Origin: Parcubacteria group bacterium
GTDB lineage: Bacteria; Patescibacteriota; Patescibacteriia; UBA2169
Length of the DNA stretch: 64,000 nucleotides
Assembly: GCA_016181765.1 (NCBI GenBank)
Contig: JACOYR010000001.1
Coordinates: 93,062 to 157,061, forward strand
Direction of reading: 5' to 3'
Shown here: one piece after another, positions 8,118-32,040 of the stretch
Layout of the letters: the number at the start of each line of letters is the position of its first letter
Numbering within the stretch: position 1 is the first letter of the stretch
Notes under the pieces: generated by a model
What the model saw: only the letters and a program-made list of their open reading frames with translations
Database searches by the model: none
Told to the model about the DNA's origin: nothing
Made by a program: the position numbers and the translations under genes

Positions 8118-8273
8118 CTAATTGCGGCTGACTCTCCATATGTGCACATCCCCCACGCGCCGCGGCTCGCCCAGGAGCTCAACTGTCTTATCTAAAACAA
8201 CATCATTGATCCACTTGTTCTCGGTCATGTAGTAGCATACATCTGCTCCGGTAATGCGGAATGCGGCGCTCAT
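8118..8273 (-). CDS. Possible 51 aa small protein, translationally coupled
   Basis: An ATG at 8273-8271 overlaps the TGA of the upstream 706 aa membrane-protein gene (ATGA). MSAAFRITGADVCYYMTENKWINDVVLDKTVELLGEP... is protein-like but has no known family. Confidence 0.25.
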   Translation of the reverse strand: MSAAFRITGADVCYYMTENKWINDVVLDKTVELLGEPRRVGDVHIWRVSRN

Positions 8274-12563: not shown

Positions 12564-12921
12564 TCACCCCGGACGATTCCTCTGGAATCGCCGGGGGCCC
12601 CGATTTCATGGCCACATGGCGCACGATTTTCGTAATGTCGCGCTCCACGCGCTCAATGTGCACGAATAACCGGAAGATGAGGTAAAACGCCAATGCAACG
12701 GCAATGTAAACGACCAAATCAATTCCGGTTGCCGTCTGCAACCCAATGTATGATGCAACGCGGTCCGCAAGCTGGGGGTACAGCGCCACCATGCCCACGC
12801 CAAACCACAGGAGCGCCCAAAACACAGCTTCCCGAAACGTGATTTCGCGCCGCTTGAGCTTGGCGCCAACGCGCGTAATCAGGAACAGAACGACAATGAT
12901 GGTAACAACTTGTATAAGCAT
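12547..12921 (-). CDS. Small membrane protein, DUF2304-like
   Basis: The 124 aa ORF has three predicted transmembrane helices and lies downstream of a polyprenol-phosphate GT2. This is the usual DUF2304 context. Confidence 0.5.
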   Translation of the reverse strand: MLIQVVTIIVVLFLITRVGAKLKRREITFREAVFWALLWFGVGMVALYPQLADRVASYIGLQTATGIDLVVYIAVALAFYLIFRLFVHIERVERDITKIVRHVAMKSGPPAIPEESSGVIGDEE

Positions 12922-12927
12922 AGGAAT

Positions 12928-13014
12928 AAGGTGTACAGGGTGTGTAAAATTTTTCGCGAGAATGCATGGGCAAAGCCCCCTTCGGAGCGAAAAATTTTAC
13001 ACACCCGAACACCT
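12928..13014. repeat. Intergenic palindromic element, copy 1
   Basis: 26-nt inverted arms AGGTGTACAGGGTGTGTAAAATTTTT / AAAAATTTTACACACCCGAACACCT flank the core CGCGAGAATGCATGGGCAAAGCCCCCTTCGGAGCG. Related copies lie at 17018-17116 and 31937-32040. Confidence 0.8.
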
Positions 13015-13026
13015 ATTACGGAAACA

Positions 13027-13698
13027 TTATTTTATCACTTTCCCCCATAAGAATCTGACCCCGAGCAGCACTTTCTTTATATTACTCTCTCCTTTCGCTT
13101 TTGAGTAGTCCGTGTACGCGATAGTCACCGGAACTTCGCAGACGGATAATCCATGCTCCGCGATCTGGTCAATCACCTCGGACGCATAGGACATGCCGTC
13201 CTGCCTGCAGTCAATAGCCTCCAGAGCGCGCGCCGAAAACGCGCGGAACCCGTTGTGGCTGTCCGTGAGCCTGATGCCGGAAAACGCCCACGTAAAAATA
13301 ATGGCAATCTTGATGAGAACTTTACGTACGAACGGCGTTGACGCATTGCCACGCAAAAATCGCGACCCAACCACCACATCAGCCTCGCCCGCCTGAATCG
13401 GCCCGATAACCCGGGCAATCTCGCCCGCATCATGCTGGCCGTCCCCGTCAAAGTGCACCACAATATCGTACCCATGCCCCAAGGCGTACTGATTTCCGGT
13501 TTCCAAAGCAGCGCCATACCCCCGGTTGACGAAATGGCGAAGTACCGCAGCACCGGCGCGACGAGCCTCATCCGCCGTGGCATCTAAAGACGCGTCATCA
13601 ACCACAAGCACCCCGTACCCGAGCTCCCGCACGGAGCGGACAACGCCAAAAATTTTTCGGGACTCATGGTATGCTGGAACAACGACGAGCGTGCGCAT
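13027..13698 (-). CDS. Polyprenol-phosphate glycosyltransferase (GT2, GtrB/ArnC/DPM1-like)
   Basis: The 223 aa ORF reads VVVPAYHES...VVDDASLDAT...DGDGQHD, which is a DPM1-like GT2 pattern. Confidence 0.8.
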   Translation of the reverse strand: MRTLVVVPAYHESRKIFGVVRSVRELGYGVLVVDDASLDATADEARRAGAAVLRHFVNRGYGAALETGNQYALGHGYDIVVHFDGDGQHDAGEIARVIGPIQAGEADVVVGSRFLRGNASTPFVRKVLIKIAIIFTWAFSGIRLTDSHNGFRAFSARALEAIDCRQDGMSYASEVIDQIAEHGLSVCEVPVTIAYTDYSKAKGESNIKKVLLGVRFLWGKVIK

Positions 13699-13705
13699 AA
13701 TTGGG

Positions 13706-13735
13706 GTCCCCAGAAACTGCCGAAGGCATTTCTGG
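13706..13735. other. Stem-loop between the ugd stop and the GT2 start
   Basis: CCCCAGAAACTGCCGAAGGCATTTCTGGGG gives a 9-bp stem with a structured loop. There is no T-run, so it may act as an attenuator or processing site. Confidence 0.3.
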
Positions 13736-13744
13736 GGTGATATA

Positions 13745-15037
13745 TTAGCGGCCTATCCCCTCGTACTCAAAACCAAGCTTTTTCATCTCGCGGGGGTCAA
13801 GCAAATTCCGGGCGTCAATCACCAAAGGCTTGCGCATGATGGTCCGGATTTTAGCCCAGTCCAGCTCCCTGAATTCCGGCCACTCGGTCGCAATTACAAT
13901 GGCATCAGCTCCCAACGCGCCCTCGTGGGCATCACGCACCAAAATGACCAGGTCATTCAAAACTTTTTTCGCGTTCAATAAGGCGAGCGGGTCATAGGCG
14001 CTGATGTTGGCGCCCTGCTGCTGCAGCCGGCCGATGATGTCAATGGCGCCGGATTCGCGCACGTCATCCGTGTGCGCCTTAAACGCCAAACCCAGCACCA
14101 GGATATTCTTGCCGTTCAAAATTTTCAGGCGCTTATTCACCTTGTCAACCACTATTCTCCGCTGCTGCTCGTTCACCTCTATCACGGATTTCAAAAGTTT
14201 GAACGCGTACCCTTCGGCATCAGAAAACTGGTGCAGGGCGCGCACGTCTTTGGGGAAGCAGGAGCCGCCGTAGCCCATGCCCGCTTTCAGGAACGCCTTG
14301 CCGATGCGGGGGTCGGTTCCAATCCCTTCCGCGACTTTGTCCACGTCAGCGCCGGTCAGCTCGCAGATGTTCGCCACTTCGTTGATGAACGAAATCTTGG
14401 TCGCCAAAAACGCGTTTGCCGCGTACTTGATCATTTCAGCGGTCGCAAGGTCCGTCATGACAACCGGAGCTTTCACTCCCTGGTACATGTCCGCAACCGT
14501 CTGTGCCGCTTCCTCGTCATTGGAACCCACCACAATGCGGTCGGGCCGCATCATGTCCGCGACTGCCTGCGACTCGCGCAAAAATTCCGGATTTGAAACC
14601 ACGCTGAACTCGCCCTTAAACGCCTGGCGGATGGTGCGAGCCACGAGCTTGCCCGTACCCACAGGCACCGTGCTCTTGGTCACGACAATCGGCGTTTTCA
14701 CCTTCAGTTTTGCAAATTGCTTCCCGAGCTCGCGGGCAACCGCGCGCACCGCGGACAAATCAGCGCCCCCGTCCAGAAGGGGCGGGGTCCACACGCAGAT
14801 GAAGTGCACCCACGATTCGCGCACCGCCTCTTCCATGTTGGTAGTGTACGAGATGCGGTCCGCGTTCTTGTTCAGGAGCCGCTCCAGTCCGGGCTCGTGG
14901 ATGGGAATAATGCCGCGCTCAAGCTTCTCAATCTTCTCACGGTCAATATCCATGATGATGACCTCATGCCCAAACTCCGCGAATGCGGCCCCGGAAACGA
15001 GACCCACGTACCCGGCTCCAATGATGGATAGTTTCAT
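13745..15037 (-). CDS. ugd: UDP-glucose 6-dehydrogenase / nucleotide-sugar dehydrogenase
   Basis: The 430 aa ORF has an N-terminal GAGYVG Rossmann motif and the GGSCFPKD catalytic-Cys motif. Confidence 0.9.
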   Translation of the reverse strand: MKLSIIGAGYVGLVSGAAFAEFGHEVIIMDIDREKIEKLERGIIPIHEPGLERLLNKNADRISYTTNMEEAVRESWVHFICVWTPPLLDGGADLSAVRAVARELGKQFAKLKVKTPIVVTKSTVPVGTGKLVARTIRQAFKGEFSVVSNPEFLRESQAVADMMRPDRIVVGSNDEEAAQTVADMYQGVKAPVVMTDLATAEMIKYAANAFLATKISFINEVANICELTGADVDKVAEGIGTDPRIGKAFLKAGMGYGGSCFPKDVRALHQFSDAEGYAFKLLKSVIEVNEQQRRIVVDKVNKRLKILNGKNILVLGLAFKAHTDDVRESGAIDIIGRLQQQGANISAYDPLALLNAKKVLNDLVILVRDAHEGALGADAIVIATEWPEFRELDWAKIRTIMRKPLVIDARNLLDPREMKKLGFEYEGIGR

Positions 15038-15945
15038 ACGTTTGTCCTAAACCACTCCCAGGTCACCCCAAGCCCTTCCTGAATGCCAACGCTCGGCTGC
15101 CAGCCGAGTTCTCGGGCCGCGAGACCATTATCCAAACTATTCCGCACTACCTCTCCTGCAACTGGTTTGGTACGCTCAATAGTAGTATCTTTTTGCGCTT
15201 CCTGCAAGAGTATGGAAGCAATCGTGTTAATGCTGGTTTCTATGCCCGTTGAAACATTATACATGCCAAATTTCTGGTTTGATGACAATGCCTTGATGTT
15301 TGCGCGTACTACGTCATCCACAAACACAAAATCCCTGGTCTGCTCCCCGTCTCCAAAAATAGTTAATGACGATCCAACCGCCAATTTCTTGCAGAAAACT
15401 GCCACCACTCCGCCCTCTCCCATGGTTCCCTGGCGCGGGCCGTACACGTTTGAATATCGCAATATGATTGACGGAATGCCGGACTCTTTCAACGCTCTTT
15501 CTATCTCTGCTTTCTGCTCTCCATAAGGTGATGTCGGCGCAACTGCTTCTGACTCTTTGATGGGCAGATTCTGGTTGTCCCCGTACACTGCCGCTGACGA
15601 CGCGAAGATGAACTTTGTGACACCCGCGGCTTTTGACGCGTTGATGACGTTCATTGATCCCGTGACATTCACGCCGTACGCAGCTTTAGGATCCTTGAAA
15701 CTCTCCCGAAGCTCAATCATAGCAGCCAAATGGAACACTGCTTCTGGCTTGTGTTCTGCAAACGCGCGACTGACGCTATCAGCATCACGAATATCAGCTT
15801 TTATGACCGTTGCCGCGGGGTTAATGAATTCGCGATTCCCCGCGCTAAAATCATCAAGGATCACGATTTCGTGACCCTCGCTGATCAAACCATCAACAAT
15901 GTGCGAACCGATGAACCCCGCTCCGCCGGTGACCAGGACGTTCAT
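15034..15945 (-). CDS. NAD-dependent sugar epimerase (UDP-glucose 4-epimerase-like)
   Basis: The real start is the internal Met ([15 protein letters not shown]) at 15945. The ORF-track N-terminal extension is Arg/Ser-rich out-of-frame-like sequence. A YxxxK (YGEQK) motif is present. Confidence 0.8.
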   Translation of the reverse strand: MNVLVTGGAGFIGSHIVDGLISEGHEIVILDDFSAGNREFINPAATVIKADIRDADSVSRAFAEHKPEAVFHLAAMIELRESFKDPKAAYGVNVTGSMNVINASKAAGVTKFIFASSAAVYGDNQNLPIKESEAVAPTSPYGEQKAEIERALKESGIPSIILRYSNVYGPRQGTMGEGGVVAVFCKKLAVGSSLTIFGDGEQTRDFVFVDDVVRANIKALSSNQKFGMYNVSTGIETSINTIASILLQEAQKDTTIERTKPVAGEVVRNSLDNGLAARELGWQPSVGIQEGLGVTWEWFRTNV

Positions 15946-15946
15946 G

Positions 15947-17008
15947 CTACTCTTTCCTGTCAAGCGTGCTCTCCTCCCACAAGCCCTGCTGCTCGTAACT
16001 GGATTTGACGCTGCGCATGTACTCAATGGTTTCTTTGAGCCCTTGTTCCATCTTGACCACCGGAAACCATCCGAGCGAATCTTTGGCGCGTTTGATGTCC
16101 GGAAGACCCTGGTCATGCATGTCCGGCAACGGCTTATCAAAAATGACCTTGGATGCGGAACCGACCAGGGTGATGACCTGCTCGGCGATGTCCGCAAGAT
16201 GGTGCTCCTCATCGCTCCCGATGTTCACCGGCCCCTGCTCTTTGGGGAACTCCATGAGCTTCAGGATGCCCTCAACCGTGTCCCGCACGTAGCAGAACGT
16301 GCTCGCTTTTTCTTTTTCCCCGTAGATGGTGATGTCGTTCCCGTCAATGGCAGCGGCAATAAAATCCGGAATGTGCCGCCCCTCGGCCATGATCATGCGC
16401 GGCCCGTACGTGCTGAATATGCGGGCTATGGAAACGTCAACTCCTGCCTGATCGCGGTACACCGTGCACAGGGCCTCGCTGAAGCGCTTGCCCTCGTTGT
16501 ACGCGGCGCGCGAGCCAACCGGGTCAATGAACCCCCAGTAGTCTTCCTTGAAGTGCCCGTCCTCGGGGGGCGGGTCGCCGTAGATCGCGGATGACGAAAG
16601 GTGTACAACCCGCGCGCCATACTGCTTGGCAAGGTCAAGCACGTGTTTGGCGCCCAGAGAGTGCACGAGCGCAGTTTCCATGGCAAAGCGCTTGGGGTCT
16701 TTGTACGAGGTCGGGGTCGCGCAGTTGTAGATCTCCTGGATGCCCGCGAACTCAACCTCAAACACTTTCAACTCCGGGAACCGTACCAAGTTAATGGACT
16801 CGGTGATGTCGTGCCGCAGAAATTTGAAATTCGGCAGTGCTAGCTGCCGCTCAATGTTCATCACGGTGCCCGAAACCAGGTTATCAATGCAAATCACGTT
16901 CACGCCCGCATCGGACGCGAGCGCCTCGCAGATGTGCGAACCGATGAACCCCGCCCCTCCCGCAACAATCACATTCTTTTTTTTGAATACTCCTTGAGTG
17001 TTTGACAT
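15947..17008 (-). CDS. UDP-glucuronate decarboxylase-like (UXS / UDP-xylose synthase family) SDR
   Basis: The start is the internal Met ([25 protein letters not shown]). The YNEGKR motif is typical of UXS. The gene is adjacent to ugd, which would supply UDP-GlcA. Confidence 0.7.
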   Translation of the reverse strand: MSNTQGVFKKKNVIVAGGAGFIGSHICEALASDAGVNVICIDNLVSGTVMNIERQLALPNFKFLRHDITESINLVRFPELKVFEVEFAGIQEIYNCATPTSYKDPKRFAMETALVHSLGAKHVLDLAKQYGARVVHLSSSAIYGDPPPEDGHFKEDYWGFIDPVGSRAAYNEGKRFSEALCTVYRDQAGVDVSIARIFSTYGPRMIMAEGRHIPDFIAAAIDGNDITIYGEKEKASTFCYVRDTVEGILKLMEFPKEQGPVNIGSDEEHHLADIAEQVITLVGSASKVIFDKPLPDMHDQGLPDIKRAKDSLGWFPVVKMEQGLKETIEYMRSVKSSYEQQGLWEESTLDRKE

Positions 17009-17017
17009 ATAGTAACG

Positions 17018-17116
17018 CAGTAATGAATTTTCAGGGGTACAAATTTCGTAGCGAGAATGATGAAGCGAAGCTTCCCTTCGGAGCGGAGAAATTTCGTACC
17101 CCTGACAATTCATTGC
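17018..17116. repeat. Intergenic palindromic element, copy 2 (divergent arms, same core)
   Basis: Arms GCAGTAATGAATTTTCAGGGGTACAAATTTC / GAAATTTCGTACCCCTGACAATTCATTGCC flank the core GTAGCGAGAATGATGAAGCGAAGCTTCCCTTCGGAGCGGAG. It sits between the S8 peptidase stop and the UXS-like start. Confidence 0.75.
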
Positions 17117-17121
17117 CTAAT

Positions 17122-19200
17122 CTATGTTCCAACATTCACCCCCCCCTTATAACCATCTTCAAAAACTTTGAACACGGAATCCTGCGCAAAGTCAACGCCG
17201 AACTTGCTGAACACCCGTACCTCGGTAGCCCTGCCCCGGCCTGACCCCGCGATAATCTCTGCCGTAGCATCCGCATCCACATTTCCGACCGCGAGGTTGG
17301 TGCCGCCCCGGAACGAAGGCTCAAATGCGAAGAACTGGGTTTCCACGTCTCCGTTTGATGAGAACACGCGCACCTGGGGCCCTCCCCCGAACCCGGCCGC
17401 GGTGACCACTTCAAGCGCCCCGTCCCCATCCACATCCCCCACCGCAACATTGAGGCCTCCGCGGAAGAACTTGGGATACGCGAGCCATGATGCCTCCTGC
17501 ACTCCCATCTTATCAAAAATCTGGACCAGCGGCAACGAGCCGCCTCCGGTACCTGTAATAACCTCAACTTCGCCGTCTTTGTCAATATCAGCCGCTTGCA
17601 CCGTAACCCCGCCGACCAAGCCGTCTGCTGTAACTTTGAATGACCATTTGATTGCGCCGCCTTTGTCAACGATTTTAACCTCGCTTGAGAGCCCGGAGCC
17701 GGCTGATGCCACAATCTCGTCAATTCCGTCTTTGTCAAAATCAGCCACTGCCACGTGCACGCCCCCGCGGAAATGCGAATCATACGCAAAGAACTGGCCC
17801 TCCACTTCCCCGCGAGTATTGAATATGCGCACTTGCGGCCCGCCTCCACCCCCTGCTCCGGTGATGATTTCCAGCTCCCCGTCTCCGTCCACGTCCCCGG
17901 AAACAACTTCAGCGCCGCCTCGGAAAAACGCGGGGTAGGCGCGCCACGAAAATGCCCCTTCTCCGCCCGGCCCGGACATACGCACGTCAACGGTGCGGTT
18001 CTGGCCGGATGAGGCAAGAATGCGCTTCGGCGCTTGCGAAATTGCTGAACGCGCCGGTGATGCGGTCCGCTTTGAGCCGTCCCCCGCTGTTTCAGCGGCT
18101 TTCTTGACTGCTGCAGCCGCGTTCAAAAGCCCGGCGCCGAGCTGGCCGCCATAGATGCCGTTGGCACGATCTATGTTTATCGCGGTCTCGCGGACAATGG
18201 AAATAACTTGGCTGTTGGAGAGCGTTGGGTTTATTGACTTCATTAAGCCCGCAACTCCAGACGCAATAGGTGCGGCGACTGACGTGCCCTGCCAGCCTCC
18301 GCGGTACCGGTTCTCAAAATCTTTGCCTAAAGCCGGGTCATAGAGCTGGGGCCCGGCAATGCCGTCCCCCGGCGTGTTGATGTCAATGCACGAAAACCCG
18401 TAATTGGAAAAATCGGACTTAGCGTTGTTGCTGCCGAGAGACCCCACGCCCAGGACGCGGTTTGCGCCTCCGTCCAAACACACCGGGTACAAAGGCCTGA
18501 AATCCAGGTCCCCTGCAATAAACCCACTGTCCGCGTCATTGCCCACTGCCGCAACCAGGATCACGCCCGCCTCGTACGCCCGAGCCACAGCATCGGAGAG
18601 GGCCGCGTCCGTGAGCGCTCCCACAAAGCTCATGTTGATGATGTCAGCCCCGTTTGCCACGGCATAATCAATGGCTTTCGCAATGTGCGCGGTGTCGCCC
18701 TCGCCGTTTGAGTCCAGGGCGCGCAAAGCCATGATCTTGCAGGTCCAGCACACCCCGGCCAAGCCGATCCCGTTGTTGGTGGCAGCAGCCGCGACCCCAG
18801 CCACGGTGGTGCCATGGTTTGCCCCGCCGAACGTATAGCCATTCCCAAACTTCGGGTGCGGATCAGAAACCTCATCCAAAAAATCCCAGCCGTTCAAATC
18901 ATCAACATAGCCGTTCTGGTCGTCATCAATGCCGTTGAGGGGTTTTTCCCCTCGGTTGAACCACATGTTTCCGATGAGGTCAGGGTGATCTGTGTCCGTG
19001 CCCGCGTCAATCACCGCAATAATGACGCCGCGCGACCCAGTAGTCAAATCCCAGGCTCCGGGAAGCTGTATCTGGTTAAAATCCGCTGCCTGTTCCTCGG
19101 CATAGAACGGGTCATTGGGCGCCACAGCCGCGAACGCAAAAACCGGCGCGAGCAGGCCCGCAATAGAAGCAAGGAGCAGTTGTGGCGCTCGCTTCCGCAT
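17122..19200 (-). CDS. Secreted subtilisin-like serine peptidase (S8) with four C-terminal FG-GAP/VCBS-type repeats
   Basis: Signal peptide (MRKRAPQLLLASIAGLLAPVFAFAA). S8 triad motifs VIDAGTD, HGTTVAGV and GTSVAAP. Four tandem repeats of roughly FFRGG..VAVGDVDGDG.EV.TGAG.GGGPQVR.F. Confidence 0.85.
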   Translation of the reverse strand: MRKRAPQLLLASIAGLLAPVFAFAAVAPNDPFYAEEQAADFNQIQLPGAWDLTTGSRGVIIAVIDAGTDTDHPDLIGNMWFNRGEKPLNGIDDDQNGYVDDLNGWDFLDEVSDPHPKFGNGYTFGGANHGTTVAGVAAAATNNGIGLAGVCWTCKIMALRALDSNGEGDTAHIAKAIDYAVANGADIINMSFVGALTDAALSDAVARAYEAGVILVAAVGNDADSGFIAGDLDFRPLYPVCLDGGANRVLGVGSLGSNNAKSDFSNYGFSCIDINTPGDGIAGPQLYDPALGKDFENRYRGGWQGTSVAAPIASGVAGLMKSINPTLSNSQVISIVRETAINIDRANGIYGGQLGAGLLNAAAAVKKAAETAGDGSKRTASPARSAISQAPKRILASSGQNRTVDVRMSGPGGEGAFSWRAYPAFFRGGAEVVSGDVDGDGELEIITGAGGGGGPQVRIFNTRGEVEGQFFAYDSHFRGGVHVAVADFDKDGIDEIVASAGSGLSSEVKIVDKGGAIKWSFKVTADGLVGGVTVQAADIDKDGEVEVITGTGGGSLPLVQIFDKMGVQEASWLAYPKFFRGGLNVAVGDVDGDGALEVVTAAGFGGGPQVRVFSSNGDVETQFFAFEPSFRGGTNLAVGNVDADATAEIIAGSGRGRATEVRVFSKFGVDFAQDSVFKVFEDGYKGGVNVGT

Positions 19201-19202
19201 AG

Positions 19203-19874
19203 TTACTCTCCAACGCCCAGCGCGCGCCCGAGCCGCTCAACGTGCGCGGCCGCATCTTTATTGTCCGGCTCCGCAACACTCACCTCGCTCCAGTACACCC
19301 ATGCCTGCCGAATGTCGCCGCGGTCTTCCAAAAATTGCGCGTACTCTGCCCAGATTTCAGGGCTTGCGGTGTAGTCGCTCGCGGCCCGAAAAATGTTCTC
19401 AAGCTCGTCCGATCTCCCTGGGAAATGGCGCTTGTAGAGCGTAATCAGCGCTTGGAACGGCTTGGGGTCGCGCGGCTCAAGCTGGGTTGCGGCGCGGAGC
19501 GCGCTGTTCGCATCCTCAAAACGCTCCATGTCGCCGTATAATATACCGAGGTGCATGTAGACGATATAATCGCGGCTGTTGATTTTGAGCGCTGATTTGA
19601 ATGCCCGTTCCGCAGCCGAAAGCCGCCCGAGCTTTTGTTCCAGGATGCCCATGGAAATGCGAGCATCAACGTCTTGGGAATTTTCAAGTGATTTTTGGCG
19701 CACGCTTGCAAGTTCAGCCTCAAGCTCTTCGCGGTATTCGTCCGTAATGTTGGGCAGAACCACAACATCCGGCTTTAGCTTTTGGTATGCTCCAAACCCG
19801 GCTCCCCCCACGAGCGCCAATGCCCCAAACGCGCCCAGAGCGAGTATGATTTTTTCTTTCTTCTTAAGCCGCAT
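19203..19874 (-). CDS. Membrane-anchored TPR-repeat protein
   Basis: N-terminal transmembrane anchor followed by TPR-like helical repeats. Confidence 0.6.
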   Translation of the reverse strand: MRLKKKEKIILALGAFGALALVGGAGFGAYQKLKPDVVVLPNITDEYREELEAELASVRQKSLENSQDVDARISMGILEQKLGRLSAAERAFKSALKINSRDYIVYMHLGILYGDMERFEDANSALRAATQLEPRDPKPFQALITLYKRHFPGRSDELENIFRAASDYTASPEIWAEYAQFLEDRGDIRQAWVYWSEVSVAEPDNKDAAAHVERLGRALGVGE

Positions 19875-19879
19875 GCCCG

Positions 19880-22207: not shown

Positions 22208-22299
22208 TGCTTAATTGTACCCAATCCGCGGCCCCTATGCAAATGGGGTACCTTGATTTTTGCACGGCGCTGTGGTATAGTCCATTACTTGATTATTGT

Positions 22300-27000: not shown

Positions 27001-27226
27001 CATTGATGCCGGCACCTCCCGCGTCCAACCCATACTCTTAACGACCTTCACCACGGTGGCGGGCATTTTTCCGCTCATCTGGTCCAGCGAGCTCTGGCGC
27101 GGCTTGAGTATTACCATTGTGTTCGGCCTCCTGTCCGCGACATTCCTGACCCTCGTCATCATTCCGGTCTTGTATGCGGGATTCGGCCGCAAAGAAGCGC
27201 TGGCGCGCCAACTCGGCGAACACTAA
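24068..27226 (+). CDS. RND-superfamily efflux permease (AcrB-like, 12 transmembrane segments)
   Basis: About 1050 aa with the typical two-large-loop architecture and conserved RND transmembrane motifs (GLMVDNSIVIIE; AVNDAIVLIDK). A GAGG ribosome-binding site precedes the ATG at 24068. Confidence 0.85.
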   Translation: MLTNNHRNKAEREARSLFGFFIAKFRLTYLILGAIILLGSFSLFTLPREADPEVQIPFAVVSAVYPGATPQDVEALVTDKLEDKIATLEQVRRFTSSSNTGISSIFVEYEAEADLAESIRKLEDAVSEAAPSLPSDALDPVVTEIRANDFPIVTYSLVGGYSGQELKDFAETLQAAFENIRGVSKVPILGGTAREFQIIADPARLANFGISLGQVAGAIGRANINVPAGSIDIDGFSYNVRVQGSFQAAEELAGVVIATAQNTPVYVSDVARILDTTASKRTESRIGFPGQEPQNTISLQIFKRTGGNILDIVDESKEAVETLQANQSLPNGLHVEKTNDNAVFIRDDLATLGTNGIQTMLLIFILLALVIGFREAVITGLSVPIAFLAAFIALQIQGMTLNGIVLFALVLSLGLMVDNSIVIIEGINEFMEKHGMNSRDAALASIAAYKWPIVSGTLTTVAAFLPMLLVSGIVGDYLSYMPKTITWTLLASLFVALVILPTIISRALKNGTKKIQAETRRGIVHRLIESNKEPYARLLVGILPSKKKRRAILAAVWVLFMVSLALPISGLMKIEMFPRINLDYFVINVELPEGSVLASTDRITQAAERVVARIPELKNYVTNLGTSASLGLTDAFSSGGGDSGNRATITVNLVDKGERERTSFAVADAVRKELEAIQGGTVRVQELSAGPPTGAPIEMRIIGNDSEALAEAARDITAALESIPGAINVETSISESPAEFTYTIDKQKANYYGLDIAAVAASARTAIFGATASTATIAGEDVDIMVKYDDAAFGTSSSLEHIILETPSGAAIPLSSVARLSLEPASASISHRNGDKVITVRAEAAEGASVPGILDAFNQAREGSALPEGISLEIGGEVEDIQQSFTEMFYSMILAVLLILIILVLQFNSFRQPFIIMFTLPLAMIGVIAGLMATRQPFSFPVFIGLVSLAGIAVNDAIVLIDKINSNIAEGKEFLDAIIDAGTSRVQPILLTTFTTVAGIFPLIWSSELWRGLSITIVFGLLSATFLTLVIIPVLYAGFGRKEALARQLGEH

Positions 27227-27280
27227 AACGATTGTCATTGCGAGGAGGCGTACTCGCCGACAAAACAATCTTACCAATCA

Positions 27281-27314
27281 AAAACAGCCTGCCGAATCGG
27301 CGGGCTGTTTTTAT
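27281..27314. terminator. Bidirectional intrinsic terminator
   Basis: AAAAACAGCCTGCCGAATCGGCGGGCTGTTTTTAT gives a GC-rich stem flanked by an A-run and a T-run. It lies between the convergent RND gene and the secreted-protein gene. Confidence 0.7.
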
Positions 27315-27336
27315 AACATCAAACTATACTTTCTGG

Positions 27337-28476
27337 CTATCTGGTCGCGCCGCTGTAGGCGATCGCCCGCACCGCGTCCCAGGCAGTTGCAGTCTCGGGA
27401 GTGCGCTTAAAGATTGCCTCATAGCTCTTGATGGCTGCCTTTTCGCTGTCCAACTTCCGGCCGCTCGGGCGCAAGCCATACGCCATCACCACCACTGCGG
27501 CGTCATCCCGCGCATTGGTCCGCACCGGAGCGCGCTTGTAGATGACTCTAAAGTTCGCTTCTGCGGTTGCCTCGCGGTCCGTATCCGTCTGCCCGGGCCA
27601 GCGGCCGTTTGCGATCTTTACCACATCTTCCCAGTCAGTATCGCTCGCCGGCAAACGTCCGAACGCTTCTTTGAACGAGTTCACGACTCCTCCGCGCTCA
27701 CCTGCGCCCAGCGTGGTGGTCGTCGGCGTCCCGTAGGTCACGAAACTCACCAGTTTTTCCCGCACTGCGCTTGAAACGCTCGGCTCGCTTGCCACAACCT
27801 TGCTCACGATTGATTTATCATACGAAGCCTCTTGCGCCGCATCAACAACCTTGTTCACTCTGGCCGCAATGTCCGCTTTCAGGCTCTGCGCGATGCTTGC
27901 GGCGTCTGACTTGACATTCGCGAGGTTCGTGTCCCCTGAAGCCGCAGGAGCTGATGCCGCCGGTGCTGCAGAAGCTGACTCGCTAGTGGTCAATTCTCCT
28001 GTTGTCGGATTGTACGTCTGTTGGGTTGTTTTGCCGCCGCCGCCACCTCCACCTCCGCCGCCCGTGGAAACGCCGCCTCCGCCGCAATCATTGGAACGAG
28101 GAACCACTGTATACGTCGCAGCTGTAGTGGGGAGCGTTATTTGAGTGGTTCCCGGGTTGCCGTTTCCGGAGCACGTAACCTTGATGCCGCTGTTATCAAT
28201 TTGAATTGACCGCACCGCAACATCAGATGAACCAACATTGAACGTGCCGGGATTGGTAACGCTGAACGTGCCGCTTGAGAATGACCATGATTCTGTTGTG
28301 GAGCCGCTGAAGATAATCATGTCTACCGTAGCGCCAGTTGTTGCGTCAATAGTAACGCCGGTTACGGTAATGTTCGCGTCTGCTGTAAAGTCCGTGGTTG
28401 CAGCCTGAACGGCAACACTGAACATAAGCGGAGTAATAAGCAGGGCGACCAGCGCTGCTATGGATATTTTTCTCAT
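27337..28476 (-). CDS. Secreted or cell-surface protein with a poly-Gly linker and C-terminal tandem repeats
   Basis: Signal peptide (MRKISIAALVALLITPLMFSVAVQA), a Thr/Ser-rich beta-rich N-domain, a GGGGVSTGGGGGGGGGG linker and three C-terminal repeats of about 35 aa (..F.RxP....W..V..IAY.G). Confidence 0.6.
   Translation of the reverse strand: MRKISIAALVALLITPLMFSVAVQAATTDFTADANITVTGVTIDATTGATVDMIIFSGSTTESWSFSSGTFSVTNPGTFNVGSSDVAVRSIQIDNSGIKVTCSGNGNPGTTQITLPTTAATYTVVPRSNDCGGGGVSTGGGGGGGGGGKTTQQTYNPTTGELTTSESASAAPAASAPAASGDTNLANVKSDAASIAQSLKADIAARVNKVVDAAQEASYDKSIVSKVVASEPSVSSAVREKLVSFVTYGTPTTTTLGAGERGGVVNSFKEAFGRLPASDTDWEDVVKIANGRWPGQTDTDREATAEANFRVIYKRAPVRTNARDDAAVVVMAYGLRPSGRKLDSEKAAIKSYEAIFKRTPETATAWDAVRAIAYSGATR
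28031..28087. repeat. GCC/ACC trinucleotide simple-sequence tract encoding poly-Gly
   Basis: GCCGCCGCCGCCACCTCCACCTCCGCCGCC... lies within the secreted-protein gene and could allow in-frame length variation. Confidence 0.7.
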
Positions 28477-28515
28477 AGGTATGTGTTATGGTTACTCTTC
28501 ATGAATACCTATGCC

Positions 28516-29247
28516 TTAGAAGCAACTGGTGGTGGAAGTCGCCCATCCGCCGAGCGTGTTGTCCACATCCGGCCACATGTAGTAGTTAATAACCGTACCA
28601 TCGGCTTTGTATGACTTAACACGGAAGCAGGGCAAACCCACATCAATAGATGAAGTGGCGTTTGCTTGCGGATCGCCTATCGAAAGCAGTGCCTGCGGAG
28701 TGCTGGATCCGATACCGACCCTATCAGCCGATGCATCAACCATGAATAAATTATTGAGTGAATCACCCTCCCACCTCAAATCAGCAAAAGCCAGAGAATC
28801 TTCATTGCCAACAGTCACGCCGCTTGCATTAATAGTAAGTAATTCCGCGGTAGTTGAACCAACCATGAAAGCCGTCTTCCCTGCTGCCGCTTGAACCGCG
28901 AGCGTGGCATTTGGCGTGGAGCTTGCAACGCCCACATTGCCGCCATCCAGAACCGTAAAGACCTCGGTTTGCCCGTCAATTATATTCACCAAATCGCCGG
29001 TGCTGGAGTTGTATACCGCAAACGTGGTTGATGATGTGGCGCCATTAACTGTCAGCGGGGTGTCGGCGCTGGCGGTTATGTCAACAATACCCGTGGCAGT
29101 AACCGTCCCGGTTGAGACATTGTTGCCGATGGTGGTGGCCGCACTGGTCATAGTAACCACAACCAAGGCAACAAAAAAAGTAGCCAGCGCACTCTGCAGA
29201 GCTACTCTCGTGTGTTGTTTTATTTTCATATGCATTTGGTTAAGCAT
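28516..29247 (-). CDS. Ser/Thr-rich surface protein with an N-terminal signal anchor
   Basis: Hydrophobic N-terminus (ALATFFVALVVVTMTSAA). Recurring V-G-x-x-S-S-T-P-x-A-x-L motifs resemble tail-fibre or adhesin-like repeats. The start may be the internal MKIKQ at 29229. Confidence 0.5.
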   Translation of the reverse strand: MLNQMHMKIKQHTRVALQSALATFFVALVVVTMTSAATTIGNNVSTGTVTATGIVDITASADTPLTVNGATSSTTFAVYNSSTGDLVNIIDGQTEVFTVLDGGNVGVASSTPNATLAVQAAAGKTAFMVGSTTAELLTINASGVTVGNEDSLAFADLRWEGDSLNNLFMVDASADRVGIGSSTPQALLSIGDPQANATSSIDVGLPCFRVKSYKADGTVINYYMWPDVDNTLGGWATSTTSCF

Positions 29248-29275
29248 AGTTTAGCTTTAAGCGTTTTAATAAAAT

Positions 29276-29345
29276 TGTGGATAAATATTTTTATCCATAT
29301 CCAGTATACCATATTCTTGACAGTCAAGTGAAAAGTTATCCACAT
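29276..29345. promoter_or_regulatory. Cluster of DnaA-box-like 9-mers and an inverted repeat in a bidirectional promoter region
   Basis: TTATCCACA lies on the minus strand at 29277-29285 and on the plus strand at 29336-29344. A one-mismatch copy TTATCCATA lies at 29292-29300. TGTGGATAAATATTTTTATCCATA is itself an inverted repeat. TTGACA is at 29318-29323. Confidence 0.35.
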
Positions 29346-29417
29346 AGTGAACAAATTAAGTCCAAGCGCACTCAAGCTTTACAAAATGCAAAAAATTGGG
29401 TAGATTAGTGATGTTGT

Positions 29418-30782
29418 ATGACTGAAAAATTCCGACAATTTATCCTGTTTTTGGGGGATATTGCACTTCTTTATGCCTCTCTGTTCCTGGCGCTCTCCGC
29501 AAGAAACCAGTCCATTATCTCGGGCCAAGACTGGTCAAGCCACTGGCCCGTGTTTTCCATTGCCTTTGCCATTTGGATCATTATCTTCTATATCACCGGG
29601 GTCTATGACCTCAACAACATCAGGAACGATTTGCGGTTCTACGCCACCGCGAGCCAGGCCATGGGAGTCAATATCCTGCTTGCTATTGCCTTTTTCTACG
29701 TTCTCCCGCAGGCCCAATTGGCCCCTAAAACGATTCTGGTGCTGAATGGAGTGTTGTTCTTTGTCCTGTTCGTGGGCTGGCGCCAGCTCGCGCATAGGTG
29801 GATTTCCAAAACCGCGCTCAAGCGCAATGTGCTCATTATCGGGGAGGGCGCCATTGCCCGGGAACTCACCGAGCTTCTGGACCACAACCCGCAGTTCGGG
29901 TACCAGATTGCGGCGATTTTGAACCACAACGCAAACGACCACCACGGGAACCTCGCGGACTACCGCGACCCGGGCCAGCTCTCCGGAGTGCTCGCTCATC
30001 ACCGCATCTCGGTTGTGGTGCTGGATAGCGAAGGCCGGAAATCAAAACAGCTCATCGCTAACCTCTACCGCCACTTGGGCGAACCTTTGGAATTTATCGC
30101 CCTGGACCGGTTCTACGAGGCAATCGCCAAGCGCATTTCCCTGGATACCATAGACCAGTTCTGGTTCCTGGAAAACCTCCAGGAGGGCAAAAAACGGCTC
30201 TACGACCTTGGAAAACGCACGGTTGATATGGTTGCCGCGGCAATCGGCCTTGTGTTCGGTATTGCCTTGATTCCGCTCATAGGCCTCATTATTTTGATAT
30301 TCCACGGCAGGCCCGTCTTTTTCACACAGACGCGCCTGGGTAAAAACGCAAAACCATTCCGGGCCATCAAATTCAGGACCATGGTCCCAGACGCGGAAAA
30401 GCACGGCCCCCAGCTCGCGGTAAAAGACGACAGCCGCGTCACTAGGCTCGGCAGAATCCTGCGCAAGAGCAGGCTGGACGAAATTCCGCAGCTGTTTAAT
30501 ATTTTCAAGGGCGAAATGAGCTTTGTGGGCCCTAGGCCGGAGCGGCCTGAATTCGTGGAACAACTGGAACGGGACGTGCCGTTTTACCGCGAACGTTTGC
30601 TTGTAAAACCGGGCTTGACTGGCTGGGACCAAATCTCCGGGGAATACCACTCCGCAAGCCGGCCTGACTCCTTGAAAAAGCTTCAGTACGATCTGTACTA
30701 CATCAAAAACCGTTCTCTATTCCTGGATATCACCATCATCCTTAAAACCATTAAAACCGTGCTCGCCGGAGCCGGGCGCTAA
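29418..30782 (+). CDS. Undecaprenyl-phosphate sugar phosphotransferase (WbaP/CpsE-like initiating transferase)
   Basis: N-terminal transmembrane segments, then the conserved bacterial sugar-transferase C-domain (FKFRTM...RLDEIPQLFNIFKGEMSFVGPRPE). Confidence 0.85.
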   Translation: MTEKFRQFILFLGDIALLYASLFLALSARNQSIISGQDWSSHWPVFSIAFAIWIIIFYITGVYDLNNIRNDLRFYATASQAMGVNILLAIAFFYVLPQAQLAPKTILVLNGVLFFVLFVGWRQLAHRWISKTALKRNVLIIGEGAIARELTELLDHNPQFGYQIAAILNHNANDHHGNLADYRDPGQLSGVLAHHRISVVVLDSEGRKSKQLIANLYRHLGEPLEFIALDRFYEAIAKRISLDTIDQFWFLENLQEGKKRLYDLGKRTVDMVAAAIGLVFGIALIPLIGLIILIFHGRPVFFTQTRLGKNAKPFRAIKFRTMVPDAEKHGPQLAVKDDSRVTRLGRILRKSRLDEIPQLFNIFKGEMSFVGPRPERPEFVEQLERDVPFYRERLLVKPGLTGWDQISGEYHSASRPDSLKKLQYDLYYIKNRSLFLDITIILKTIKTVLAGAGR

Positions 30783-30785
30783 CCT

Positions 30786-31955
30786 ATGGCTGGACAACCA
30801 CGCGTTTTATTCTGCACCGGCGTGTTTCCGCCCGCAATCGGCGGACCAGGTAAAATTGTTGAACAATTGGCTGGTGCGCTCTCGGGAAATGGATACGAAT
30901 GCCGTGTATTGACGTTTGGCAGGGATGATGGAGCGAGCCAGCCGTATGACGTCAATCGGATACCACTCGCAATCCCCCAACCCTTGCGATTAATGATGAC
31001 ACTGTTTAAGACGCTTTGGCTTGGCCGACGCGCTGACATCATCTATTCCCTGGATACGTACTCAAGCGGCTTTGCCGCCGCAATCGCATCACAAATACTC
31101 CGCAAACCTTTGATTCAGCGGTTCAGCGGAGACTCGGCCTGGGAAAGCGCCTTTAATGCCGGAGAGACGGATGATGATATAGCCACATTCCAGAACAGGC
31201 CCCATGGCGTGAGGACGAAACTATTGATGTGGCGTAGGAATTTTGTTCTCAAAACAGCGCGGACAATTATTACGGACAGTGAATTCCTCAAAAATTTCCT
31301 CCAAACAATCGGGATTGATGCAAGCAAGGTGATAGTCATCCGAAATCCGGTTGAAGCGCAATCCTCTTTTGACTTTGACAGAGAAGCTTTCAAACAAGAA
31401 CATGGCTTCAAGCAAAACGTCATACTGACCATGGCGCGTCTGGTTCCTTGGAAAGGAATTTCTGCTCTAATTGAGAGCATGCCTGATATTCTTGCCAGCC
31501 ACCCGGACACAACACTGGTTATCGCAGGCGTTGGCCCGAGCGAACAGGAGCTTAAAAAATTGGTAAATGACCAAAAGATTGGTAATTCTGTTTTATTCCT
31601 TGGGAACGTGACAGATAGGCAAGAAAAGCAGAAGCTGTACGCCGCAACTGACGTATTCGTGCTCAACACGTTCTACGAAAGCATGTCCAATGTGTTGCTT
31701 GAAGCAATGGCAGCGGGTCGCGCGATTGTGACAACCCGGGCAGGCGGCAATCCGGAATTTGTGAATGATGAGAATGGCATGCTCGTGCGCTATAATGATA
31801 ATGTCCAGATGACAAGCGCCATCGCAAATCTCCTGGATGATGCGGCGCTTCGGCAAAAGCTCGGCCAACAAGCCCGCCAGACGGTCCAGCAGTTCACTGT
31901 GGAAAATTTTGTAAATGAGAATACTAAAATTTTAACAGGTGTGCAGGGTGTGTAA
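30786..31955 (+). CDS. Family 4 glycosyltransferase
   Basis: GT-B fold with an E-x7-E region (NVLLEAMAAGRAIVTT). Its last six codons and the stop lie inside the left arm of palindromic element copy 3. Confidence 0.8.
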   Translation: MAGQPRVLFCTGVFPPAIGGPGKIVEQLAGALSGNGYECRVLTFGRDDGASQPYDVNRIPLAIPQPLRLMMTLFKTLWLGRRADIIYSLDTYSSGFAAAIASQILRKPLIQRFSGDSAWESAFNAGETDDDIATFQNRPHGVRTKLLMWRRNFVLKTARTIITDSEFLKNFLQTIGIDASKVIVIRNPVEAQSSFDFDREAFKQEHGFKQNVILTMARLVPWKGISALIESMPDILASHPDTTLVIAGVGPSEQELKKLVNDQKIGNSVLFLGNVTDRQEKQKLYAATDVFVLNTFYESMSNVLLEAMAAGRAIVTTRAGGNPEFVNDENGMLVRYNDNVQMTSAIANLLDDAALRQKLGQQARQTVQQFTVENFVNENTKILTGVQGV

Positions 31956-32040
31956 ATTTTGAAACGAGAATGCATGGAGCCCGCCGAATCGGCGGGCGAC
32001 CCTTCGGAGTTGAAAAATTTATACACCCGAACACCCTGCA
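31937..32040. repeat. Intergenic palindromic element, copy 3 (with an inserted GC hairpin)
   Basis: Arms AGGTGTGCAGGGTGTGTAAATTTT / AAAAATTTATACACCCGAACACCCTGC flank the core GAAACGAGAATGCATGGAG[CCCGCCGAATCGGCGGGC]GACCCTTCGGAGTTG. The inserted hairpin resembles the terminator at 27285. Confidence 0.8.

Follow-up and report, generated by a model that had tools for sequence, protein, structure and literature searches.

An intergenic hairpin repeat family with a conserved asymmetric core in Parcubacteria

Three palindromic sequences with a common core lie between genes in a 64,000-nucleotide stretch of a Parcubacteria group genome (contig JACOYR010000001.1), referred to here as the window. The locus raises the question of what kind of element these sequences are and why copies are retained. 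A first-pass annotation, made from the sequence alone, had described them as a three-copy palindromic repeat around a core, and its sequence claims all hold. The gapped core pattern GAGAATG..CCTTCGGAG has exactly three matches in the window, against a chance expectation of 0.01, and a covariance-model search of the window returned no further family member. The copies and their apical modules were located as follows.

12929..13014, + strand: copy 1, whole hairpin; arm subtype A, AGGTGTACAGGG…CCCGAACACCT; covariance model 94.1 bits
12957..12987, + strand: copy 1 apical module, composed of CGAGAATG, CATG, the small hairpin GGGCAAAGCCC (12968-12978) and CCTTCGGAG
17020..17116, + strand: copy 2, whole hairpin; arm subtype B, AATTTTCAGGGGTAC…GTACCCCTGACAATT; covariance model 82.4 bits
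17052..17083, + strand: copy 2 apical module, composed of CGAGAATG, AT, the small hairpin GAAGCGAAGCTTC and CCTTCGGAG
31936..32040, + strand: copy 3, whole hairpin; arm subtype A; covariance model 88.2 bits
31965..32009, + strand: copy 3 apical module, with a long small-hairpin variant, GCCCGCCGAATCGGCGGGC, at 31979-31997

Each copy folds as a single long hairpin, with energies of -48 kcal/mol for copy 1 (z = -9.3), -45.4 kcal/mol for copy 2 (z = -7.8) and -52.4 kcal/mol for copy 3 (z = -7.7); 0 of 200 shuffles were as stable in each case. The arms are 25-30 bp long and vary in sequence between copies while keeping their complementarity. As the annotation had noted, the arms of copies 1 and 3 are near-identical (85-86%), and those of copy 2 have another sequence that is still self-complementary.

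Further copies, which the annotation had proposed to look for, exist in other genomes. Scans of public data combined with a covariance model gave 32 distinct copies, all derived from metagenome-assembled genomes (MAGs) and every one in assemblies of Parcubacteria/Patescibacteria type. An exact-core scan of 185,579 species genomes found 35 loci where about 17 were expected by chance; long arms were present at 19 of the 35, which carry 21 copies, all in MAGs of the candidate phyla radiation type, with at most seven copies in one MAG. These 21 long-armed copies and the three from the window make up alignment A1 (24 copies). A metagenome scan using the arm motif only gave 19 copies, corresponding to 11 distinct sequences, whose cores were nearly unchanged (sole variants GAAAATG and TGAG). 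No match was found in the phages, plasmids and viral contigs scanned, nor in Rfam at gathering thresholds, where the sole weak match was mir-3912 (21.8 bits against a gathering score of 95), and a literature search found no description of such a hairpin family. The three window sequences are thus genuine members of an undescribed family of 90-105-nt intergenic hairpin repeats which, as far as sampled, is confined to one Parcubacteria clade of the candidate phyla radiation.

The alignments identify the non-palindromic core as the most conserved part of the family. The apical module is almost invariant and asymmetric, consisting of CGAGAATG, (N)ATG, a mini-hairpin that is usually GCGAAGC, and CCCTTCGGAG. 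At the base lies a module of one of two types: GGTGTGCAGGG…CCCGAACACC, in which a GCA/GA internal loop is conserved, or ATTTTCAGGGG…CCCCTGAAAAT. The middle stem between them (10-15 bp) is variable, and its two sides change together. The annotation's proposal that the stem is kept while its sequence changes is borne out by the covariance-model alignment of the 32 distinct copies: 92.3% of cells are paired, against 33-57% in slid controls, 20 of 30 pairs show two-sided changes (111 such cells), and 0 of 500 shuffles reached any of five covariation measures. An independent count based on MAFFT gave 86.5% paired cells and 18 two-sided pairs, with 0 of 500 shuffles on four of the five measures. Template-switch correction of quasi-palindromes can keep complementary arms perfect without selection. 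Since the arms could persist in this way, the 'covariation' alone is no proof of structural function.

Orthologous copies were also compared with the gene beside them. Copy 1 and its orthologue L008a are 94% identical, while the adjoining GT2 gene reaches 77% overall and 58% at third positions; between the window and L020, the element is 80% identical and GT2 71% overall and 46% at third positions. These values indicate that copies, once in place, change far more slowly than adjacent synonymous sites. So high a level of conservation between orthologues is equally compatible with a host function and with a selfish element.

Relatives were compared at the same loci, as the annotation had suggested, and copies are absent from some of them. 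L008, a collinear relative, has amino-acid identities of 80-83% to the window. Its S8 peptidase/epimerase B junction is 4 nt long and empty, whereas in the window this junction spans 113 nt and is filled; conversely, its epimerase B/epimerase A junction spans 120 nt and holds a family member, and the corresponding site in the window is empty:

15943..15949, - strand: empty site; epimerase B stop codon 15947-15949 and epimerase A start codon 15943-15945, 1 nt apart

All three sites are empty in three more collinear clusters (L095-L097). The reciprocal filled and empty sites in the window and L008, together with three relatives that lack all the copies, indicate that the element has been gained and lost. 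In a tree of GT2, the filled genomes form two clades with one empty genome nested among them; orthologues of copy 1 were found in L008, L020, L015, L072 and L004. The closest relatives of several copies lie within the same genome (80-83% in the OS_PC subfamily, 91% for L027/L033), and by sequence similarity some copies form genome-specific subfamilies. Copies enter spacers of 1-4 nt where genes are closely packed, and the end of the upstream ORF can become part of the element. The element borders show no target-site duplication, which the annotation had proposed to look for, and no clear target; the sole signal is a weak TA at -2/-1 together with A(T/C)T at +1..+3. The 25 commonest Pfam families among the flanking ORFs include no transposase, recombinase or HUH nuclease, and the analysis identified no partner gene. 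The REP/MITE-type intergenic behaviour put forward in the annotation in place of a classical riboswitch agrees with these data, but a MITE in the strict sense does not, as target sites are not duplicated and the arms lack the conservation of transposase-binding terminal repeats.

In the window, all three copies occupy intergenic gaps. Copy 1 separates a GT2 gene, whose stop codon is at 13027, from DUF2304-GT2-GT4, where the DUF2304 start codon is at 12921; both codons are on the - strand. Copy 2 fills the 113-nt spacer from the S8 peptidase stop codon (17122) to the epimerase B start codon (17008). The GT4 ORF (30786-31955) runs into the left arm of copy 3 (…ACA GGT GTG CAG GGT GTG TAA), so that, as had been reported, its stop codon (31953-31955) and the six codons before it lie inside the arm. 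Copy 3 is the sole window copy on the same strand as both flanking genes (GT4 and UXS-like), and copies 1 and 2 are oriented opposite to it relative to their neighbours; both orientations also occur across the family.

The genes 3' of copies 2 and 3 are NAD-dependent epimerase/dehydratase paralogs with a YNEGKR motif. The annotation had placed the two copies 5' of these UXS-like genes; the position is correct, but a special link to UXS-like or polysaccharide genes does not survive the comparison with other genomes. Among 115 flanking ORFs surveyed, the GT2-element-DUF2304 junction recurs and the others are housekeeping genes of many kinds, including LexA, FtsK, PilM, GMP synthase, Mur ligase, CTP synthase, tRNA synthetases and an amidohydrolase. 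With neighbours this diverse, the association with UXS-like genes is coincidental. A riboswitch-like leader or attenuator specific to UXS-like/epimerase and glycosyltransferase genes would account for the two copies that precede the epimerase paralogs, the one inside the glycosyltransferase operon and the recurring junction, but the survey contradicts it. Copies 2 and 3 differ in orientation, clusters L095-L097 work without the element, and in L008 it lies downstream, not upstream, of the same epimerase. We consider such a regulator extremely improbable.

A stable hairpin directly 3' of stop codons could also be a transcription terminator, intrinsic or without a U tract, as the annotation had considered. 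However, the copies have no T tract, a terminator scan made no call, and most copies lie within strings of co-directional genes that are translationally coupled in relatives. The same genome does contain canonical terminators in which a GC hairpin is joined to a T tract, one of them bidirectional:

27287..27305, no strand assigned: GC hairpin of a canonical bidirectional terminator, AAAAACA-GCCTGCCGAATCGGCGGGC-TGTTTTT; not a family member

A role as terminator is therefore highly improbable.

The orientation of the copies bears on whether the element acts in transcripts or in DNA. Flanking genes are on the opposite strand in 21-24 copies, on the same strand in six and ambiguous in two. This bias of about 80% would suit a purely cis-acting mRNA element selected at the RNA level in operon transcripts, with its spread being incidental. 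Such an element could be a site for RNase III processing, a stabiliser of 3' ends, or a means of holding the stop and start codons of adjacent genes near each other. The hairpins form very stable duplexes that begin 0-14 nt past the upstream stop codon and end 6-42 nt ahead of the next start codon within co-directional gene strings, and across six genomes the GT2/DUF2304 copies are conserved far above synonymous sites. Yet the bias relative to immediate neighbours does not exceed the strand bias of genes in the region, which amounts to about 77% of long-ORF bases. The six inversely oriented copies have equally canonical cores, and the model scores same-strand copies no lower than the rest, at 101-112 bits; window copy 3, at 88, is the exception. 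The arms contain 589 Watson-Crick pairs, 15 G·U and 11 A·C (14 against 16 in another count); they bear no RNA-type wobble signature on either strand, and G·U is not in excess over A·C in the transcribed sense. Finally, the purine-rich tandem G·A motifs usually lie opposite the mRNA strand. We regard a purely mRNA-level element as unlikely, if still a serious candidate.

The strand bearing CGAGAATG is the C-rich strand at 25 of 26 distinct loci, an association that is confounded with gene orientation in low-GC loci and contradicted by L014; in higher-GC loci, including the window, it holds within genes of both strands too. Orientation tracks GC skew better than gene direction, and the three window copies keep one orientation across a gene-strand switch. 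It thus appears to be set by the chromosome strand and not by the adjoining gene. A strand-specific chromosome signal that folds as single-stranded DNA on the lagging-strand template, its orientation fixed by replication direction, would match this pattern and the almost purely Watson-Crick arms. Recombination sites and signals for priming or of primosome type (ssi-like) are candidates. The consensus small hairpin GCGAAGC is an extraordinarily stable DNA mini-hairpin (Tm 76.5 °C), and the reverse strand of the invariant CCCTTCGGAG holds CCGAAGG, the mini-hairpin of RSF1010 ssiA; motifs of this type recur at phage G4 and ssiA priming sites (PMC13037366). In addition, the chimeric copy in L016, with a subtype-A left arm and a subtype-B right arm, could be a recombination scar at the core. 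Against this, the mini-hairpin likeness spans 7 nt only, the element has no link to a protein of replication or recombination, and the confounded skew weighs here too. We judge a chromosome signal of this kind improbable.

The CGAGAATG strand carries two to three tandem G·A motifs in an irregular, purine-rich apical region, and folding favours this strand over its complement by 1-11 kcal/mol in 23 of 24 copies. Both features would suit an independently transcribed multi-copy sRNA gene, a long hairpin with a protein-binding apical domain shaped like 4.5S/SRP or Y RNA. However, there is no conserved promoter within 50 nt on either side and no terminator, neighbouring ORFs are just 0-40 nt away, and copies are gained and lost between relatives, which makes an sRNA gene very unlikely.

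We give about an even chance (roughly 0.5) to the element being a new structured repeat, REP/BIME-, ERIC- or Correia-like, whose invariant top marks it for recognition in the form of a folded single strand. The strand recognised would be DNA at the replication fork, RNA, or both. A putative protein would read the invariant apical module and the loop of the base module, and the middle stem would be required only to pair. Co-transcription of whichever strand would yield RNA with a 25-30 bp duplex between cistrons, a candidate RNase III substrate and barrier to 3' exonucleases. The duplex would stabilise or uncouple the flanking cistrons, which offers a plausible reason for the retention of copies.

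REP/BIME elements of Enterobacteria and Pseudomonas, which are associated with RAYT, are likewise intergenic palindromic repeats, often in operons near stop codons, polymorphic between relatives and without target-site duplication. They function in folded single-stranded form, stabilising mRNA and binding proteins (IHF, gyrase), and a BIME has two inverted arms around a conserved asymmetric linker. REPs are, however, 20-40 nt long, with a conserved stem sequence, a 5' GTAG and hundreds of copies, whereas the Parcubacteria element is 90-105 nt long with a free, covarying stem and an invariant apical part, no RAYT was found, and its copy number looks low (3-7 per genome, counted with a strict pattern). 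Correia (NEMIS) elements of Neisseria and ERIC/IRU are also hairpin-forming, about 100-150 bp long and placed between genes in either orientation. They are co-transcribed and cleaved by RNase III, and can supply stop codons or promoter-like hexamers, as with the match TTTACA-16-TAAAAT within the left arm of copy 3. In Correia elements the 26-bp terminal inverted repeats are fixed and a TA is duplicated; the Parcubacteria arms vary from copy to copy through compensatory changes, and the borders show no duplication.

Integron attC sites (e.g. Vibrio cholerae repeats) share imperfect palindromes (57-141 bp) immediately 3' of ORFs with structure conserved and sequence not, are recognised as a folded single DNA strand whose unpaired bases give strand choice, and in chromosomal arrays have an orientation tied to replication. 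They differ in their conserved R''/R' boxes (RYYYAAC/GTTRRRY) at the base and variable top; the Parcubacteria element lacks these boxes, its top is invariant, its copies are dispersed, not arrayed, and no integrase is seen. The phage G4 complementary-strand origin and RSF1010 ssiA are strand-specific DNA hairpins with GCGAAGC-/CCGAAGG-type mini-hairpins (PMC13037366), but they are plasmid or phage origin elements with known primases, whereas the present element is chromosomal and multi-copy, the likeness being limited to 7-nt motifs. Organelle hairpin repeats (e.g. sponge mitochondria, PMC2800124) are likewise short and invade the intergenic spacers of compact genomes. Their hosts and sequences are unrelated to those described here. 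Such organelle repeats are not known to have a conserved asymmetric core.

Individual copies show further variation. L072 has a solo arm next to a full copy, and the rare small-hairpin variant of copy 2 also occurs in L008:6368-6475. The small hairpin of copy 3 resembles a terminator stem, as the annotation had observed, being identical to 27287-27305 at 18 of 19 positions, a difference of one base. The hairpin sequence gives four matches over both strands at two sites, where 0.11 were expected. The long apical hairpin is also found in L022 and L088, and is thus a family variant that is not unique to copy 3.

Three copies of an intergenic hairpin repeat of 90–105 nt, referred to here as the element, lie in the window. 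Their positions and their neighbours, as assigned by Pfam, are:

12929–13014, + strand: copy 1, arm subtype A, between a GT2 gene and a DUF2304-GT2-GT4 gene run
17020–17116, + strand: copy 2, arm subtype B, between an S8 peptidase/FG-GAP gene and an epimerase gene
31936–32040, + strand: copy 3, arm subtype A, between a GT4 gene and a UXS-like gene

The positions had been proposed in a first-pass annotation, together with a shared core and inverted arms, and all of this was confirmed, with the three copies in one and the same orientation. The window has three occurrences of the gapped core GAGAATG…CCTTCGGAG, compared with 0.01 expected. Copies 1–3 each fold as a single long hairpin (-48, -45.4 and -52.4 kcal/mol, respectively) with folding z-scores of -7.7 to -9.3, and shuffled sequences were never as stable. 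As claimed, the arms of copies 1 and 3 are 85–86% alike, while those of copy 2 are different yet self-complementary, and the GT4 open reading frame (ORF) indeed terminates at a TAA within the left arm of copy 3. A covariance-model search revealed no further copy in the rest of the window. The 19-nt GC hairpin noted in copy 3 (31979–31997) and a hairpin at 27287–27305, which belongs to a canonical bidirectional terminator, are one base apart. The two share their loop orientation; one serves as a terminator stem and the other as the apical hairpin of copy 3.

When aligned, the copies of the family form a single irregular hairpin. From base to tip, it consists of:

outer stem at the hairpin base: 5–6 bp, (A/G)GGTGT/ACACC(T/C)
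conserved asymmetric loop above the outer stem: GCA versus GA
main stem: about 15 bp, GGG-variable-AAATTT
purine-rich loop above the main stem: 3x3
2-bp helix: alternates between GC and AU among copies
tandem G·A step above the 2-bp helix, followed by a bulged G
toward the tip: GAA/UUC helix, then a U·C mismatch, then an (N)AU bulge
tip: small variable hairpin, most commonly GCGAAGC

The base reads GGTGTGCAGGG/CCCGAACACC or ATTTTCAGGGG/CCCCTGAAAAT, and the invariant part is the top. Copy 2 has a second base type (ATTTTCAGGGGTAC…), as do L017 and L022, two loci from public metagenome-assembled genomes (MAGs; such loci carry L-numbers throughout), and most copies of one MAG have a related, ATTTT-type base. 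The apical module, comprising the near-invariant core and the small hairpin, is invariant over 35 nt across genomes of 38 to 61% GC. The small hairpin itself is nearly deleted in L011:2253–2352 and lengthened in copy 3, L022 and L088. Compared by eye, none of the K-turn, 11-nt receptor, sarcin-ricin and T-loop readings fits the core. Changes in the arms are compensated, both sides being altered in 17 of 21 arm pairs and in 12 of the 15 main-stem pairs.

The family proposed in the first-pass annotation is real and extends beyond the window. An exact-match scan with a 21-base core pattern, run on one genome per species (185,579 species), returned 35 loci, compared with about 17 expected by chance; 19 loci (21 copies) had long arms. 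Seven MAGs contain these long-armed loci, up to seven copies being present in one of them; the labels are Patescibacteria, Parcubacteria, 'bacterium' and 'uncultured Gammaproteobacteria'. Metagenomes were scanned by arm motifs alone, leaving the core out of the query, which avoids circularity. This recovered 19 true elements (11 distinct sequences), all with the same core and with a single-base core variant in two of the distinct sequences (3/19 copies). Since the core is near-unchanged in copies retrieved by their arms, it is conserved on its own account. The covariance model added one further copy, located in the flanks of the collected loci.

When 32 distinct copies were aligned to the model, 92.3% of the cells were paired and 20 of 30 pairs were altered on both sides (111 cells). 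Slid controls were 33–57% paired, and none of 500 shuffles reached the observed value on any covariation measure. A count on a MAFFT alignment, made without fitting to the structure, agrees with this result. Template-switch correction of quasi-palindromes could also maintain perfect arms, so covariation on its own is no proof that pairing is selected. What does speak for selection is that the core and the specific asymmetric loops persist.

The element is a new family. Rfam 15 covariance models gave no match in the whole window at the gathering score, and copy 1 ± flanks matched only mir-3912 at E<=10, scoring 21.8 bits where the gathering score is 95. Known RNAs, including riboswitches, sRNAs, ribozymes, HEARO, EAR and wcaG, were therefore rejected at gathering and permissive thresholds alike. 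An origin from phages or plasmids was likewise discarded, since phages, plasmids and viral contigs contained no family match, and our literature search found no description of the element.

As for the hosts, L008 is collinear with the gene cluster of the window at 80–83% amino-acid identity, and its assembly is labelled Gammaproteobacteria. A window protein is 100% identical to one from a 'Parcubacteria group bacterium' MAG, and given the collinearity we judge the Gammaproteobacteria label unreliable. The MAGs CAZSGI01 and CAYIMZ01, which contain L008, L011, L014, L015, L023 and L030, are both titled 'uncultured Gammaproteobacteria', and given the collinearity of L008 these titles are probably wrong. 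We regard the hosts as a single clade of Parcubacteria.

The element fills the whole spacer in which it resides, beginning 0–14 nt past the upstream stop codon and ending 6–42 nt ahead of the next start. Many genes in the window overlap or abut by 1–4 nt. Copies 2 and 3 had been noted directly upstream of two UXS-like paralogs, NAD-dependent epimerase/dehydratase genes, and the YNEGKR motif that defines the pair is present in both. The association is not specific to the element, as most of its neighbours are varied housekeeping genes. Outside the window, 115 ORFs lie near copies; of these, only GT2, DUF2304 and UDP-glucose dehydrogenase recurred, and their recurrence marks one conserved junction, the other neighbours being housekeeping genes of many kinds; given this variety, the link to the UXS-like genes is coincidental. 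The 25 most frequent Pfam families of these 115 ORFs, all within 2.6 kb of copies, included no transposase or integrase family.

Shine-Dalgarno-like motifs precede the predicted starts of 11 of 52 window genes under a lenient pattern; because such motifs are rare in this genome anyway, their loss downstream of elements is uninformative. No conserved promoter was found beside the element, the one strong promoter-like match being confined to copy 3, and a promoter-bearing sRNA gene was rejected for lack of a conserved upstream signal. In a 20-kb region, the sigma-70-like match that scores best (TTTACA-16-TAAAAT preceded by TG, 10/12) is at 31956–31929 on the - strand, within the left arm of copy 3 and antisense to GT4. 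Its TTTACA derives from the conserved arm part GTAAATTT.

The element is gained and lost at orthologous junctions. Between the S8 peptidase gene and epimerase B, the epimerase gene beside copy 2, the window has 113 nt including copy 2, compared with 4 nt in L008. The junction between epimerase B and a second epimerase gene, epimerase A, measures 120 nt with an element in L008 versus 1 nt in the window. Copy 2 and this L008 element have a rare small-hairpin variant in common (GAAGCGAAGCTTC) and differ in arm type. Three more collinear clusters (L095–L097; 64–71% GT2 identity) have all three sites empty and no element in 81 kb; the MAG that contains one of these clusters has the element at another locus (L022). 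The longer spacers in L096 (163 nt) and L097 (68 nt) do not fold and are not family members. In a GT2 tree, the genomes whose GT2/DUF2304 junction is filled fall into two clades, among which a genome with an empty junction is nested, and for several copies the closest relative is another copy in the same genome.

Neither the comparison of filled and empty junctions nor the 32 aligned flanks showed a consistent direct repeat indicative of target-site duplication; one 8-nt near-repeat flanks the element in L004 only. A fixed target was not seen either, the flanks showing a weak TA before the element and A(T/C)T after it. At a GT2/DUF2304 junction, L072:3744–3791 (gene-sense) is a solo half-element (GGGTGTTCGTGGGCTTGCATTTTTTGTCG) directly before a full copy at 3792–3900, and it is probably the remnant of an earlier insertion. 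The family member L016:7060–7168 has non-complementary arms, subtype A on the left and subtype B on the right (AAATTTCGTACCC…), and folds weakly (-25 to -30 kcal/mol). This arm combination would be expected from recombination at the conserved core, and L016:7060–7168 looks like the product of such an event between two copies.

Where the element is retained, it changes slowly. The orthologous GT2/DUF2304 junction copies of the window and L008 are 94% identical, compared with 77% overall and 58% at third positions for the adjacent GT2 gene; between the window and L020, the corresponding values are 80% for the element and 71% and 46% for GT2. The arms of these orthologues differ by compensated changes, transversions included. 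On these identities, the element is constrained, or is being homogenised, above the level of the neighbouring coding sequence.

The composition of the arms does not identify a functional RNA strand. Arm pairs comprise 589 Watson-Crick, 15 G·U and 11 A·C pairs, and with arms almost purely Watson-Crick no wobble signature singles out one strand. A G·U versus A·C asymmetry was accordingly dropped as a pointer, being absent both here and in an earlier count (14 versus 16). Relative to the CGAGAATG strand, 21–24 copies are antisense to their flanking genes, six are sense and two ambiguous, and the sense copies fit the covariance model as well as the antisense ones. The CGAGAATG strand is the C-rich strand at 25 of 26 distinct loci. 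At the higher-GC loci, the window included, the sign of the skew is equal in genes of both strands, so that at these loci more than a coding-strand effect is involved; low-GC loci are uninformative on skew, and L014 contradicts the pattern. The strand bias of immediate neighbours (~80%) does not exceed that of genes in the region (~77% of long-ORF bases), as would be expected of a replication-linked orientation. The three window copies keep one orientation across a gene-strand switch. The GC skew of the window stays negative throughout its 64 kb, and ~78% of its coding sequence is on the - strand.

GCGAAGC, the commonest small hairpin of the family, is an extraordinarily stable DNA mini-hairpin, and ssiA of RSF1010 carries a CCGAAGG mini-hairpin (PMC13037366), a motif also present on the reverse strand of the invariant CCCTTCGGAG. 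This motif-level likeness and the skew association may hint at ssi/primosome-type single-stranded DNA signals, at which the folded strand supports primer synthesis or binds PriA or primase, as leads rather than tests.

The element has the lifestyle of intergenic palindromic repeats already described (REP/BIME, ERIC, Correia). What is unusual is its architecture, a freely covarying stem beneath an invariant asymmetric top. Classical REP/BIME sequences are 20–40 nt long with a conserved stem and a 5' GTAG, whereas the element has 90–105 nt, a stem that varies and covaries, and no GTAG. They number tens to hundreds per genome; the exact 21-nt pattern gave 3–7 copies per MAG. RAYT (Y1 HUH), whose gene REPs typically flank, was absent from the 25 most frequent Pfam families of the 115 nearby ORFs. 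A classical MITE does not fit, given the lack of target-site duplication and of conserved terminal inverted repeats, the mid-stem differing by compensatory changes. An integron attC site was rejected, since the R'' RYYYAAC and R' GTTRRRY boxes are absent at the hairpin base and conserved and variable parts are inverted. Sites of this kind form cassette arrays beside intI; the copies are dispersed among housekeeping genes, and no integrase was among the 25 most frequent families of flanking ORFs. IS200/IS605-derived elements (PATE), which occur in genomes with TnpA, would be compatible with the absence of duplication, but they have two different subterminal hairpins and a fixed 4–5-nt target, compared with a single hairpin and at most a weak TA here. 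Intrinsic termination was rejected: no copy is followed by a T tract or was called by a terminator scan, and the genome has canonical terminators, such as the true one at 27277–27312. A box-C-like UGAUG suggested a TIGR-Tas array, a reading that was rejected. TIGR arrays are tandem 36-nt units with box C/D-like UG…CCA motifs beside a tas (Nop-domain) gene (PMC12045711), whereas the copies are solitary and kilobases apart, with no tas gene and no Nop-domain family among the flanking genes.

The reading we favour, with a probability of about 0.5, is that the repeat is gained and lost and that a putative protein, reading its apical module, recognises it in the form of a folded single strand; its orientation is probably set by the chromosome strand. 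When transcribed, it would place a 25–30 bp RNA duplex between cistrons, a structure expected to concern RNase III and to act as an exonuclease barrier. The data show the family with its structure and covariation, its gain and loss, its constraint and its lack of gene specificity; we infer a partner protein, a stage as single-stranded DNA and these consequences for RNA. It is conceivable, though rather unlikely, that CPR bacteria have an undiscovered system for recognising hairpins and that the element, a strand-specific signal oriented by replication direction, is its DNA (or RNA) substrate, with a dedicated protein reading the 35-nt apical module and the stem only pairing. Such a substrate would differ from attC, REP/RAYT and IS200/IS605 ends and would constitute a new class of site for recombination, transposition or priming on single strands.

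CPR/Parcubacteria genomes are tiny and densely packed and, to our knowledge, described non-coding elements are almost absent from them. Entry into 1–4-nt junctions, conservation above the neighbouring coding sequence and the 35-nt invariant module point to a protein–nucleic-acid interaction that would be new for the lineage. If orientation truly follows the replication strand, the element would be a new example of biology based on single-stranded DNA. It can be used as a handle in strain typing of these MAGs, and the covariance model is ready for genome-wide surveys; gene callers should be treated with caution, as they extend ORFs into the arms.

The window contains two other repeats. A second palindromic family, CCCC(C)TCCTT-N3-4-AAGGAGGGGG…GGGGGGTGGT, forms 9–10 bp hairpins, and a 41-nt repeat, TGTCATTGCGAG-N4-CGTACTCG…CAATCTTA, occurs twice with 76% identity:

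7180–7214: second palindromic family
9355–9389: second palindromic family, within the - strand ORF of a 706-aa membrane protein (8270–10390)
10824–10858 and 11347–11381: second palindromic family, both within the - strand GT4 gene 10375–11526
9947–9987: 41-nt repeat, inside the 706-aa ORF, reading …LRSRVRSLAMT…
27233–27273: 41-nt repeat, intergenic, just upstream of the terminator

The three in-ORF copies of the palindromic family translate as PP(T/L/P)(P/G)(S/P)L(I/L)(K/N/G)(E/T/K)(G/R/E)GE(V/R) and are reminiscent of the Rickettsia RPEs, which are in-frame palindromic insertions.
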